A DNA stretch of 64,000 bases from an uncultured bacterium. Lineage in GTDB: Bacteria > Hydrothermota > Tepidihabitantia > Tepidihabitantales > Tepidihabitantaceae. Under the pieces are notes generated by a model that saw only the letters and a list, made by a program, of their open reading frames with translations, did no database searches and was not told where the DNA came from. Below, one piece after another: positions 35,511-40,624 of the stretch. Made by a program: the position numbers and the translations under genes. Where the stretch lies: contig CAYPNB010000004.1 of the NCBI GenBank assembly GCA_964412225.1, positions 16,170 to 80,169 on the forward strand, given 5' to 3'. Every line of letters begins with the position of its first letter. The first letter of the stretch is position 1.

Positions 35511-35834
35511 GTGAAAGTTGGTGAGTTTCAACGTTTAATCCGGGATATTTATTTTGAAAAAGATCGCCGGCGCGGAGCCGAGGGCACATTTCGCTGGTTG
35601 GTGGAAGAAGTCGGCGAACTGGCCCGGGCGTTAAGACACGATCGTCTTCCGGCAAAGGAGGAGGAGTTTGCCGATGTCTTTGCCTGGTTGGTGAGTCTGG
35701 CCAGTCTCGCCGGGGTGGATATGGAGCGGGCATGCGAGAAGTATCGGCAGGGATGTCCGAAGTGCCATGCCATACCCTGCCGGTGTCCAGAGTCCAAGCC
35801 GGAGGTAACGGGAAAGAACAAAGGAGCACGATGA
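35511..35834 (+). CDS. MazG-like nucleotide pyrophosphohydrolase domain protein with a Cys-rich C-terminal tail.
   Basis: 107 aa. LVEEVGELARAL...EEEFADVFAWLVSLASLAGVDME is the EExGE MazG motif. C-terminal CPKCHAIPCRCPE. GTG start at 35511. Promoter-like TTGACA at 35476, then 16 nt, then TAATAC. The stop overlaps the next gene's ATG (ATGA). Confidence 0.5.
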   Translation: MKVGEFQRLIRDIYFEKDRRRGAEGTFRWLVEEVGELARALRHDRLPAKEEEFADVFAWLVSLASLAGVDMERACEKYRQGCPKCHAIPCRCPESKPEVTGKNKGAR

Positions 35835-36943
35835 TGATAATCGGTTTGGCTTTTTTGTTGTTCGGGCAGCTGTCGCCCCCGACGCTCACGGTGTTTGATA
35901 CCCCGAATGACGCCGGGAAGAGTATCACCATTCGTTGGCAACTGGCAGCAGGGGTAAATCCAGATGGTTTTGTTCTGGAGCGGACCGATGATACCGGCGC
36001 GGTGACGGTTGTCGCCACCCTGCCAGCCGGAGAGGGCAGTTTTATTGATGAGGGGGTGGTTGACGGCAAGGTTTATCGGTATCGGGTGGCGGCGATAGCT
36101 GGAGCGGATACGTTATGGAGCGCACATTCGGTTAGGGTGAAGAGTTCGCCGCAGTGGTTCAACTGGGCACGGGTTAACATTCTTGTGGCAATGCTCATTT
36201 TCTTTACCCTGGTGATTTATTTTATTGAACACGCCAAGGCGGGCAGGCATCTTTTTGTTCGCCGGATCGCCGGGTTGGATGCGGTGGAGGAGGCGGTGGG
36301 CCGGGCGACAGAGATGGGTAAGCCGATTGTTTATGTGCCCGGGCTGGGTTCGGTGGCTGATATTGCCACCATTGCTTCCTTGAACATTCTCGGTGAGGTG
36401 GCGAAGAAAACCGCTCAGTACGATTCGGCGCTATTGGTACCTAACCGTGATCCGATCGTCTATACTGTGGCCCGGGAAGTGGTGAAGGAGGCGTACACCC
36501 GGGCCGGCCGGCCGGATGCGTTTAAGCCGGATAATATCTTCTTTGTTACCTCGGAGCAGTTTGCCTATGCGGCGGCGGTTGATGGATTGATGGTTCGGGA
36601 AAAACCAGCCACCAATTTTTTCCTCGGCACATTCTGGGCGGAGTCCTTAATTTTGGCCGAGACCGGTGCCACCACCGGGGCGATTCAGATCGCCGGGACC
36701 GATTCGGTATTCCAGTTGCCGTTTTTTATTACCGCCTGCGATTACACTTTGATTGGTGAGGAGTTGTACGCCGCCAGTGCTTATCTTTCTCGGGAACCGT
36801 TGCTCCTGGGTTCCCTGAAGGGACAGGATTTCGGGAAGATGCTGATTTTAATTGTGATTGTGGTTGGTTCGGGGCTGCTTTTGCTTTCTAAGATTCCGGC
36901 CCTGGGTTTTTTCCGGGCAATTATCAACTTCTTTAATGTCTGA
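35831..36943 (+). CDS. Hypothetical bitopic envelope protein A: signal/TM, fibronectin-III-like domain, TM helix, ~200-aa X domain, C-terminal TM. Paralogous to gene C.
   Basis: ATG at 35831 preceded by AAGGAG. Fn3-like segment KSITIRWQLAAG...GKVYRYRVAAI. TM helix VNILVAMLIFFTLVIYFI. C-terminal block AGTDSVFQLPFFITACDYTLIGEELYAASAYLS then TM. Parallels gene C's [33 protein letters not shown] then TM. Confidence 0.5.
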   Translation: MMIIGLAFLLFGQLSPPTLTVFDTPNDAGKSITIRWQLAAGVNPDGFVLERTDDTGAVTVVATLPAGEGSFIDEGVVDGKVYRYRVAAIAGADTLWSAHSVRVKSSPQWFNWARVNILVAMLIFFTLVIYFIEHAKAGRHLFVRRIAGLDAVEEAVGRATEMGKPIVYVPGLGSVADIATIASLNILGEVAKKTAQYDSALLVPNRDPIVYTVAREVVKEAYTRAGRPDAFKPDNIFFVTSEQFAYAAAVDGLMVREKPATNFFLGTFWAESLILAETGATTGAIQIAGTDSVFQLPFFITACDYTLIGEELYAASAYLSREPLLLGSLKGQDFGKMLILIVIVVGSGLLLLSKIPALGFFRAIINFFNV

Positions 36944-36964
36944 GTAACTGCAGGGAGGCGAAGA

Positions 36965-38437: not shown

Positions 38438-39067
38438 ATGCACATCTCCACCAATATCTGGACCTGGTTGGCGGTGATTCTCACCTTTGGCATTTTTTCT
38501 TTTCTCTGGAAGGACAATCCGTTTTATAAGTTCTGCGAGCATCTGTTTGTTGGGGTTTCGGTTGGCTATACGATTGCCCTGACCTGGTATAATTCGGTCT
38601 ATCCCGACCTGGTCACACCGCTATTTAGACAGGGACAGCCGCTCTATATCATTCCGTTTGTGCTTGGTCTGTGCTACTTCTCCCGGTTTATTCCGAAGGT
38701 TTCCTGGTTAATTCGAATTCCGATGGGGTTTGTCCTTGGCTGGGCTTCCGGGGTGGCGATTCCGGCTTTTTTTCAGACGAACATTATGAAGCAGATTCAG
38801 GGAAGCCTGTTGATGCCGGAGATATTTGCCCGCTGGGATGTGTTTCTCTGGGCGCTGATCTCGTTTGTGGGTGTGGTTTGTTCAGTGTTGTATTTTTTCT
38901 TCTCCCAGGAACAAAAGGGGGCGTTGAAGGTGGCTTCTGAGACCGGGATTGTGTTTCTGATGATTGGGTTTGGTGCGTCTTTCGGTTATACGGTGATGGC
39001 GCGCATGTCGCTTTTGATCGGCAGGTTTCAGTTTTTGCTCCGCGACTGGCTGGGCGTTATTAAGTAA
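38438..39067 (+). CDS. Hypothetical polytopic membrane protein D (209 aa), paralogue of gene B.
   Basis: ATG at 38438, directly after C's TAA, with GGAAAGGGGG upstream. 5 predicted TM helices. Confidence 0.45.
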   Translation: MHISTNIWTWLAVILTFGIFSFLWKDNPFYKFCEHLFVGVSVGYTIALTWYNSVYPDLVTPLFRQGQPLYIIPFVLGLCYFSRFIPKVSWLIRIPMGFVLGWASGVAIPAFFQTNIMKQIQGSLLMPEIFARWDVFLWALISFVGVVCSVLYFFFSQEQKGALKVASETGIVFLMIGFGASFGYTVMARMSLLIGRFQFLLRDWLGVIK

Positions 39068-39070
39068 GTC

Positions 39071-40624
39071 TTGATGGCGTTTCTGGGGCTGGTTTTCTCC
39101 CTGTTGGTTACCCTGACCGGGTATGACTATGTGCCGACTTCTTCCCGGATTTATGAGGACCTTGACCTGCTGAAGACTGCGGGGCTGATATCCAATTTAC
39201 CTTCCAGCAGCCGGCCGTGGACCCGGCGGGAGTGTTTTGATCTCCTTTGTGTTGCCGAGTCGGTTAAGGGAGAAAGACAGCTCAATCCGGCACAGGAGGC
39301 GGCGTTAAGGCGCTTACGCTGGGAACTGGGAAAAAAGAGTGACCAGGCCGGACAGAGAAAACCGGTTTTTGCCGTTCCGTTACCAGCCGGTGGGGTTGGT
39401 TTTGACCTTTTTAGCTGGACAGAACTGCAGCGGACAAGGCAGCTGTTTACATTAGGCGGTGTCCTTGCCAGTCAGCCAGGTGAGAGGTTCTTTTTTTATG
39501 AACGGGCAGAGTTTATCCTGTTCAATCCGGAGACGTCACGGATTTGCGATTCTACCGGCTGGCATGTTCCGGGGTTTCGCTGGGTAACGATGCGGGACCG
39601 ACTGATGCTTGATATTGAGCGGGCTTATCTCGGATGGCAACTTCCCTGGTTGAGGTTGGAGTTGGGTCGGGACGAGTTTTTCTGGGGTCCGGGTTATCTT
39701 TCTTCGGTGATGCTTTCTGATAACGCTCCGGCTTTGGACCAGGTACAGGTTGTAGTTTCCGGTCGGGGTGGAAAGTTTATTGCCTGGACCGCGATGCCTT
39801 CGCGCTGGAACGGGGAACACCGATTCATTTCCGCCCAGCGGCTGGAACTGGCGCTGGCCAGGCGGCTTTTAATCGGCGGGGCGATGTTTAACGTTTACTC
39901 CTGGGAGCGAACCCAGGATTTCAGCGGTTTGTTGAACCCGTTACTGCCCGTTTTTGGCACAATGGCGGGCACCGGACATAATGACAATCTGCTTCTGGGT
40001 AGTGATATCGTCTGCTATCTGCCCTGGACCAAGGTCTACGGTCAGATTCTGGTGGACAACTTTGAGTTCAACAACTGGCAGGTCGCGCCCAATTGCGTCG
40101 GTTTCCAGGCGGGGGTGTTCTTCGCGCCGGGGTTGCCGGTTGAGTTCCGGACCGAGTATGCGCTGGTGACCGCTTTTACCTATTATCACCGGATCTACTC
40201 AATAATGTTTGAAAACTACGCTGTGCCATTGGGGCATGAAATTGGACCGGATGCGGATAAACTGTGGGCACGGGTTTCGTTCACGCCGGTGAGCTGGTTG
40301 AAGGCTTCGGTTTGGGGGGACCTGACCCGGCGGGGGTATTTCAATCGGGGGGATTTTTTGCGGAAGAGTTTTCAGATGGAGGATACCGTTTTTCTGCGCC
40401 ATTATTACGAGTTTCCTGCGCGGGGCAGGGATTATGCCACCGGTGCGGTTATTGAAGAGGTAGAGCAGGCGGTGCGGTTCGGTCCGCAACTGGAGTTTTC
40501 CCCTTTTGCCGGTTTTTATCTTGTTGCTCAAGGGGCGGTTGTTTTTTACCGGAATAAGAACGGTGAGCGCGGGAAAAACGGCAACGAAGGAGAGTTTTTG
40601 TTCCGGGTTGAGTACCGGTATTAA
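39071..40624 (+). CDS. Outer-membrane beta-barrel protein E with an N-terminal helical plug-like region; tentatively Wzi-like (capsule assembly family).
   Basis: 517 aa. Signal peptide MMAFLGLVFSLLVTLTG. N-terminal IYEDLDLLKTAGLISNL...RPWTRRE resembles the Wzi N-terminal helix motif. Many amphipathic beta-strands. C-terminal ...FRVEYRY with terminal aromatic. Confidence 0.35.
   Translation: MMAFLGLVFSLLVTLTGYDYVPTSSRIYEDLDLLKTAGLISNLPSSSRPWTRRECFDLLCVAESVKGERQLNPAQEAALRRLRWELGKKSDQAGQRKPVFAVPLPAGGVGFDLFSWTELQRTRQLFTLGGVLASQPGERFFFYERAEFILFNPETSRICDSTGWHVPGFRWVTMRDRLMLDIERAYLGWQLPWLRLELGRDEFFWGPGYLSSVMLSDNAPALDQVQVVVSGRGGKFIAWTAMPSRWNGEHRFISAQRLELALARRLLIGGAMFNVYSWERTQDFSGLLNPLLPVFGTMAGTGHNDNLLLGSDIVCYLPWTKVYGQILVDNFEFNNWQVAPNCVGFQAGVFFAPGLPVEFRTEYALVTAFTYYHRIYSIMFENYAVPLGHEIGPDADKLWARVSFTPVSWLKASVWGDLTRRGYFNRGDFLRKSFQMEDTVFLRHYYEFPARGRDYATGAVIEEVEQAVRFGPQLEFSPFAGFYLVAQGAVVFYRNKNGERGKNGNEGEFLFRVEYRY

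Follow-up and report, generated by a model that had tools for sequence, protein, structure and literature searches.

Conserved A-B-C-D cassettes encoding a DUF6754 protein and three further membrane proteins in WOR-3 and other uncultured bacteria

The described systems that most resemble the locus treated here are Wza-Wzc-Wzi capsule export, the synthase-dependent systems, type I ABC importers, Rnf/Nqr, and OmpM of diderm Terrabacteria. Saidi et al. (2022, PMC9603273) document that, in polysaccharide export, OPX proteins pair in genomes with 18-stranded barrels, the Wzi type among them, and OmpM is stated to be absent from Gracilicutes (PMC10628300). Both statements bear on six + strand genes at positions 35511-40624 of a 64,000-nucleotide stretch of DNA from an uncultured WOR-3 bacterium (assembly GCA_964412225.1, contig CAYPNB010000004.1, positions 16,170 to 80,169); the whole stretch is called the window, and coordinates are positions in it. 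The genes, taken from a listing of open reading frames and from junctions read in the sequence, are a MazG-like gene, genes A, B, C and D for four membrane proteins, and gene E for an outer-membrane protein. A, B, C and D are co-inherited in hundreds of uncultured species, of the FCB group and some others, and no characterised homologue, solved structure or literature was found for them. The reading that we tentatively put forward, as a possibility and not as a settled assignment, is that they constitute an uncharacterised four-subunit inner-membrane complex whose task would be the export or assembly of a polymer of the envelope, probably a polysaccharide.

The A-B-C-D cassette and its operon

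When GTDB was scanned with a profile, one genome for each species, more than 560 loci were recovered; 80 of them were fetched for locus analysis. The order A-B-C-D is invariant in all 80, which supports the reality of the genes, and these loci span at least nine phylum-level lineages (WOR-3, Latescibacterota, Stahlbacteria, Edwardsbacteria, TA06, Cloacimonadota, Poribacteria, Zixibacteria, Eisenbacteria) with varying flanking genes. Mean pairwise identity among 75 complete cassettes is 0.70 for the DUF6754 domain of A (about 70% across phyla), 0.54 for D, 0.52 for B, 0.45 for the periplasmic domain of C, 0.33 for the A ectodomain and ~0.30 for the A transmembrane helices. The cassette is under strong purifying selection across phyla, and the gradient DUF6754 > D > B > C > A ectodomain is the pattern expected of engine, channel and substrate-facing parts. 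The conserved unit is A-B-C-D and not the six genes; the MazG-like gene and the outer-membrane barrel are lineage-specific additions. Neighbour enrichment yielded no conserved partner beyond MazG, Wzi and OPX genes, PurF and MetG being rejected as local synteny.

At least 15 loci carry two or three A-B-C-D cassettes, mostly in tandem. Complete cassettes stand in tandem, for example, in L022, L028, L034-L037, L021, L043, L051, L056, L068, L072 and L074, from Stahlbacteria, TA06, Edwardsbacteria, Eisenbacteria and others; a doubled A gene precedes a single B-C-D in L004, L026, L042 and L071.

The operon of the window is laid out as follows.

35476-35504, + strand: candidate promoter-like site, TTGACA / 17 nt spacer / AATACT, from a consensus scan only
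35511-35834, + strand: MazG-like gene, 107 aa (PF03819, PDB 1vmg, junction read)
35831-36943, + strand: gene A, 370 aa, signal-like N-terminus, Fn3, transmembrane helix, DUF6754, transmembrane helix
36965-37594, + strand: gene B, 209 aa, six transmembrane helices, no family
37591-38436, + strand: gene C, 281 aa, transmembrane helix, alpha/beta domain, transmembrane helix, no family
38438-39067, + strand: gene D, 209 aa, about six transmembrane helices, no family
39071-40624, + strand: gene E, 516-517 aa outer-membrane protein (PF14052; OmpM and Wzi structure matches)

These six genes are one operon. An earlier interpretation of the window from its letters (the sequence-only reading) had described them as co-directional, with overlapping or abutting stop and start codons, and the junctions agree: the MazG-like stop and the A start overlap in ATGA at 35831, with AAGGAG 7 nt 5' of the A start; the 21-nt gap between A and B holds a GGGAGG ribosome-binding site; the B stop and C start overlap in ATGA at 37591; the TAA of C is followed by one base and the ATG of D at 38438; and E begins 3 nt after the D stop at TTG 39071, or 6 nt after it at ATG 39074. 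An independent gene call, from another assembly of the same organism, gives B 209, C 281, D 209 and E 516 aa (ATG 39074), and the D start is backed by orthologues as well as by that call. The promoter-like site ends 7 nt 5' of the GTG start of the MazG-like gene, which suggests that the leader is very short or absent. E is convergent with Sua5, and the operon is flanked by housekeeping genes (MnmG, Sua5, a GreA-like protein, ThyX). For a small open reading frame at 35117-35428 no conservation was found.

Architecture of the four cassette proteins

Gene A is already catalogued, as DUF6754, its residues 107-350 matching PF20539 at 409 bits against a cut-off of 27 (E-value 8e-123). Together with hydropathy this bears out the architecture previously assigned to it, of an Fn3-like domain, a transmembrane helix, a domain of about 200 aa and a C-terminal transmembrane helix:

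35870-36148, + strand: A residues 14-106, periplasmic Fn3 ectodomain, the part that varies across the family
36164-36232, + strand: A transmembrane helix 1, residues 112-134, weakly conserved anchor (hydropathy; identity 0.32)
36233-36835, + strand: A residues 135-335, DUF6754, predicted cytoplasmic (PF20539), the most conserved element of the system
36836-36943, + strand: A transmembrane helix 2 and short tail, residues 336-370 (hydropathy; identity 0.29)

The ectodomain is matched to Fn3 by both sequence profile and fold. Around the first helix the family-wide count of lysine plus arginine is 0.75 before and 5.0 after, from which the DUF6754 domain is predicted to be cytoplasmic, and the clear classical signal peptides of members with long ectodomains agree with this topology. 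The domain has dozens of invariant residues; its structural model shows a beta-alpha-beta first half at low confidence and pLDDT of 22-34 for residues 250-330. No relative of the DUF6754 part was found in the PDB, nor any Pfam or NCBIfam family of known function, and literature searches for DUF6754, for PF20539, and for WOR-3 with Fn3 found no mention. Three possible signatures in A were considered and rejected: a flavinylation motif [ST]GA[ST] at residues 278-281, since position 281 varies between T, Q and A; a Walker A in GRATEMGK, which on inspection has the wrong spacing and sits before a strand; and a likeness of VYVPGLG to transhydrogenase dIII, seen by eye, with no Pfam match behind it.

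An exhaustive search with the DUF6754 part gave 2,253 representatives at 50% identity, 848 of them at an E-value of 1e-30 or better. Among the representatives DUF6754 is always C-terminal, with 30 to 1,016 aa (median 290) ahead of it. Fn3-like repeats, up to five, are present in 100 of 150 DUF6754 proteins (at least one each), and other repeat modules without a Pfam match also occur in this region; the A ectodomains are Fn3 or carbohydrate-binding-module-like repeats, of a type typical of glycan-handling proteins. No enzymatic fusion domains were found in the long variants of A. One long member labelled Brocadiia (P0272, among P0241-P0390) has long repeat modules with an NxSFE...W pattern and no Pfam match.

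B and D had been described as polytopic proteins of exactly 209 aa, and both independent gene calls and the count of about six transmembrane helices in each uphold this. B has a conserved YRAFRAR loop and a ...LGIERxWLGGG tail, and its charge bias indicates an N-in/C-in topology; D has conserved NPFYRFAEH and GFGASFGYTVMAR motifs, and by charge bias its orientation is ambiguous. C, held to have the architecture of A minus the Fn3 domain, does consist of a transmembrane helix, an alpha/beta domain of about 215 aa (AlphaFold2, pTM 0.74) and a second transmembrane helix. The model of this domain (residues 33-248, positions 37687-38334) is five-stranded and only generically Rossmann-like. Family-wide, N- and C-termini of C each carry 3.8 lysine plus arginine; by charge both termini would be cytoplasmic, the N-in first helix and the basic tail included, and the domain is therefore predicted to be periplasmic. 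When 45 members of each of the B, C and D families were scanned, and when family profiles were used, nothing of known function was matched in Pfam, NCBIfam or the PDB; scattered sub-threshold Pfam matches among those members, such as DUF3394, Anthrone_oxy and DUF2249, were rejected.

The sequence-only reading had further taken A and C, and B and D, for paralogues (the X domain and C-terminal helix aligning in the first pair, the C-terminal segments in the second) and the operon for an A-B / C-D tandem duplication, and this part does not stand up to alignment. BLASTP gives non-significant E-values of 2.6 for A versus C and 2.7 for B versus D; hhalign, with profiles of 80-250 sequences, gives probabilities of 0.5 to 1.5% (P 0.03 to 0.11) for A versus C and 0.4 to 1% for B versus D. 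All the A/C and B/D probabilities (0.4-1.8%) are no better than those of the mismatched controls A/B, A/D, C/B and C/D, and a larger alignment gave no gain. Because significant similarity is lacking and the membrane is predicted to separate the two domains, that of A being cytoplasmic and that of C periplasmic, the pairs share architecture and not demonstrable ancestry. That A-B and C-D are nonetheless ancient tandem duplicates diverged past easy recognition is very improbable, in spite of their matching architectures (helix, alpha/beta domain, helix in A and C; 209 aa and six helices in B and D), a profile alignment that runs co-linearly, if weakly, through the A and C domains (P 0.033) and a low-confidence model segment at an equivalent position in both domains, since a Rossmann-like fold is too common to argue shared origin.

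Lineage-specific partners and the surrounding window

The MazG-like protein is, by its sequence, a member of the all-alpha NTP pyrophosphohydrolase family: it matches PF03819 with an E-value of 1.4e-10 (41.8 bits against a cut-off of 22), its nearest solved relative is PDB 1vmg (E-value 1.8e-21), and the metal-binding motifs EExxE and EExxD (here EEVGE and EEFAD) are kept, with a cysteine tail, in 27 orthologues upstream of cassettes. This C-terminal GCPKCxxxPCxC tail, conserved in the subfamily and lacking in 1vmg, is probably a zinc knuckle. The operon of the window is indeed led by this gene, as the earlier account had it; as a general rule that does not hold, for about one locus in three has MazG 5' of the cassette, in WOR-3, Stahlbacteria, TA06 and a few other groups. 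In some loci of Stahlbacteria and TA06, small selfish-type genes (23S rRNA intervening-sequence protein, DUF559 endonuclease-like) lie between MazG and A:

L015:2000-2365, selfish-type gene insertion
L020:7524-7889, selfish-type gene insertion
L034:3914-4354, selfish-type gene insertion
L036:7528-7971, selfish-type gene insertion
L022:4048-4458, selfish-type gene insertion

Protein E has a signal-like N-terminus, a putative OmpM-like SLH domain and stalk, a Wzi-family beta-barrel and a C-terminal end in ...EYRY. It matches Pfam Wzi PF14052 with an E-value of 3e-15 (56.4 bits against a cut-off of 30.1, the model being partly covered), and a profile of nine orthologues matches the Wzi structure 2ynk (E-value 9.5e-5) with WGPGY and Y.H.iY...pLG motifs. 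The same profile matches the SLH domain and stalk of Veillonella OmpM (8bz2, 8bys, 8bym) with E-values of 8e-7 to 4e-6, stronger than the Wzi match; among SLH structures it matches OmpM only, no Pfam SLH was reported, and the barrel is of another type. From the two sets of matches E is taken to be a Wzi-type barrel preceded by an SLH-like domain and a stalk, these last two being placed as follows.

39104-39343, + strand: E SLH-like domain and stalk, residues ~12-91, including a PWTRRE (TRxE-type) motif

The tentative identification of E as a Wzi-like outer-membrane barrel is accordingly confirmed by PF14052, 2ynk and the aromatic end; the barrel as a general component of the system is not, since clustering of concatenated proteins confines adjacent outer-membrane genes to the window's own cassette subfamily. 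Sixty-three homologues of E are annotated only as 'capsule assembly Wzi family', the named ones coming from WOR-3 or unclassified 'bacterium' metagenome-assembled genomes, and no capsule biosynthesis genes adjoin E. A Wzi-family gene lies 3' of the cassette in 11 loci, with three different flanking sets. In four sister loci, representing two contexts, there is no Wzi-like gene after D, and a co-directional OPX gene stands instead ~100 bp 5' of A; it encodes Poly_export, three SLBB domains and a hydrophobic C-terminal helix, and is Wza-like:

L013:2012-3280, Wza-like OPX gene
L016:302-1582, Wza-like OPX gene
L054:73-1197, Wza-like OPX gene
L062:6581-7837, Wza-like OPX gene

It could be held that the six genes are not one system, A-B-C-D being a unit and MazG and E housekeeping neighbours that synteny has preserved in WOR-3 relatives. 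No other subfamily has E, and neither does the close relative L086, where MazG-ABCD has neither a Wzi-family nor an OPX gene; MazG is missing in about two thirds of loci; and the selfish genes between MazG and A point the same way. Against this, the MazG stop overlaps the A start, MazG lies 5' of cassettes in WOR-3, Stahlbacteria and TA06 even with insertions between, and MazG-ABCD-Wzi is found with three different flanking gene sets, so that mere neighbourhood appears unlikely.

Elsewhere in the window, the 728-aa protein encoded at 30302-32488 joins a patatin-like phospholipase domain to POTRA and an Omp85 barrel, an arrangement like that of PlpD (type Vd secretion). A gene on the - strand at 41269-43209 encodes a 646-aa GreA/GreB-domain protein with an N-terminal extension of ~490 aa, annotated HTH_GRAD in orthologues, and adjoins Sua5 in an arrangement kept in relatives. 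The 532-aa ThyX at 43693-45291, with two Thy1 stretches, is apparently a duplicated or fused flavin-dependent thymidylate synthase. Most window genes are on the + strand. GC skew is positive in all 2-kb bins of 1-64000 (0.02 to 0.33) and the cumulative skew climbs without a turn, which places the whole window on one replichore.

Proposed function and comparison with known systems

In the complex that we propose, B and D with six transmembrane helices each would form a 12-helix membrane core, and the four proteins together one inner-membrane complex of 16 transmembrane helices. A, held by two weakly conserved anchors, would expose DUF6754 to the cytoplasm, where it would serve in catalysis or energy supply, and its variable Fn3-type ectodomain to the periplasm; C would place its Rossmann-like domain in the periplasm between two helices, with the same topology as polysaccharide co-polymerases, and this domain and the A ectodomain would be the periplasmic, faster-evolving parts. 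Within the window's subfamily the complex may hand polymer to an outer-membrane partner, E here and a Wza-like OPX channel in sister loci. The MazG-like pyrophosphohydrolase, coupled to the cassette in the operon, might be an energy input. Direction of transport and substrate we infer from the partners: capsule-type outer-membrane proteins are associated with the cassette in two independent ways, which speaks for a surface polymer being exported or assembled. The trans-envelope export or assembly machine of the sequence-only reading thus gains indirect support from the OPX genes 5' of sister cassettes and loses its duplication premise.

Several points weigh against such a function. About 20 other cassette subfamilies have no nearby outer-membrane gene, so the link to polymer export rests on one subfamily, and no glycosyltransferase, flippase, ATPase or sugar-nucleotide genes consistently adjoin cassettes. 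No recognisable energy-coupling motif was found, and the poor model of DUF6754 (pLDDT 22-34, residues 250-330) does not establish a catalytic fold. The SLH-like domain of E would fit a structural tether or a porin equally well, and tandem multiplication is more typical of uptake transporters.

The last point leads to type I ABC importers, which A-B-C-D resembles in subunit number, subunit sizes and conservation gradient, the gradient mirroring nucleotide-binding domain, permease and binding protein. A-B-C-D might on these grounds be an uptake transporter for solutes or oligosaccharides, built like a binding-protein-dependent importer, in which B and D, of six helices each, supply the two halves of the permease, C is a tethered periplasmic binding domain, the A ectodomain captures substrate, DUF6754 replaces the ABC ATPase as a regulatory or energising part, and E is the outer-membrane entry porin. 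Tandem paralogous cassettes, variable ectodomains of glycan-binding type and the porin nature of OmpM-type proteins (PMC10628300) would suit this. On the other side, no ABC ATPase gene lies in or beside the cassette and there is no Walker motif; no subunit matches an ABC, TRAP, TTT or PTS family, and no BPD_transp, ABC2_membrane or FtsX match, as expected of an ABC or ABC-2 transporter with a periplasmic adaptor, was found in 45 members each of B, C and D or in NCBIfam; the binding-protein analogue is anchored by two transmembrane helices; and OPX proteins, which stand beside sister cassettes, are known only in export (PMC9603273). An importer of this kind we regard as improbable.

Somewhat further from likelihood is an envelope tether or force transducer, comparable to Tol-Pal, TonB or OmpM, that joins the inner membrane to wall and outer membrane and transports nothing. 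Its link would be made by periplasmic stalks (Fn3 repeats of A, the C domain) and the SLH-bearing barrel E with its OmpM-like stalk; the periplasm could be bridged by A ectodomains whose Ig-like repeats extend to as much as ~1,000 aa, and a small cytoplasmic enzyme heads the operon as ybgC heads that of tol-pal. Some A ectodomains are only ~30 aa, however, E is restricted to one subfamily, no MotA, ExbB or TolQ family match was found, and the A transmembrane helices are weakly conserved, unlike the ion-conducting helices of known stators.

If the export or assembly complex is correct, it would provide a new inner-membrane pathway for envelope biogenesis and explain how little-known diderm phyla build part of their surface. 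A bolder form, which we consider quite doubtful, would make A-B-C-D a fourth inner-membrane polymer-export engine beside Wzx/Wzy, ABC and synthase, driven by DUF6754, possibly with the MazG-like NTP pyrophosphohydrolase as a novel source of energy, and docked in WOR-3 to an OmpM-like SLH-bearing Wzi barrel. With 2,253 DUF6754 clusters the family is big enough for confident complex modelling, which makes the question testable now.

The claim that the system is undescribed is sustained by Pfam, NCBIfam and PDB sequence searches, in which none of A-D was matched to a known transporter or to components of Lol, Lpt, Tol, Bam, Wzc or gliding. Searches of Pfam and NCBIfam gave no match in A-D, at E-values of 1 to 5 or better, to Rnf/Nqr, Mot/Exb/Tol, Lol, Lpt, Bam or gliding/T9SS families, and no PDB relatives were found. 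With Rnf/Nqr the cassette shares two six-helix subunits of ~200 aa, a bitopic subunit with a periplasmic domain and a membrane-anchored cytoplasmic Rossmann-type subunit; it differs in having no Rnf-Nqr match, no conserved cysteine clusters and, given the varying position 281 of A, no conserved flavinylation motif. The synthase-dependent systems (BcsA/BcsB/BcsC, Alg8/Alg44/AlgE, PgaCD/PgaA) likewise have a cytoplasmic alpha/beta domain between transmembrane helices and an outer-membrane beta-barrel, and also periplasmic beta-sandwich and flavodoxin-like elements, as in the general anatomy of BcsA/BcsB; DUF6754 has no GT2 or other glycosyltransferase signature, there is no PilZ and no TPR, and no search gave homology.

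Polysaccharide co-polymerases (Wzz/Wzc/KpsE) have the topology predicted by charge for C (N-in helix, large periplasmic domain, helix, C-in), but C has a Rossmann-like domain in place of a helical-hairpin periplasmic fold and no Wzz/GNVR match. From Wza-Wzc-Wzi capsule export the operon differs in having no Wzx, Wzy, ABC or BY-kinase partner and in A, B and D, which are without counterpart there, and E differs from E. coli Wzi in its SLH-like domain, not known in the latter; the likeness lies in the Wzi-family barrel of E and the Wza-like OPX gene of sister cassettes. Compared with OmpM, E has a Wzi-type barrel and not a 16-stranded porin, and conservation does not extend to the Trp in the sugar-binding motif of SLH domains; its N-terminal ~80 residues align with the OmpM SLH domain and stalk, TRxE-type motif included. 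This OmpM-like architecture occurs in a WOR-3 genome (FCB, Gracilicutes), where OmpM has been reported absent (PMC10628300), and the putative SLH-plus-Wzi barrel bears on that published claim of the absence of OmpM-type tethers in Gracilicutes.

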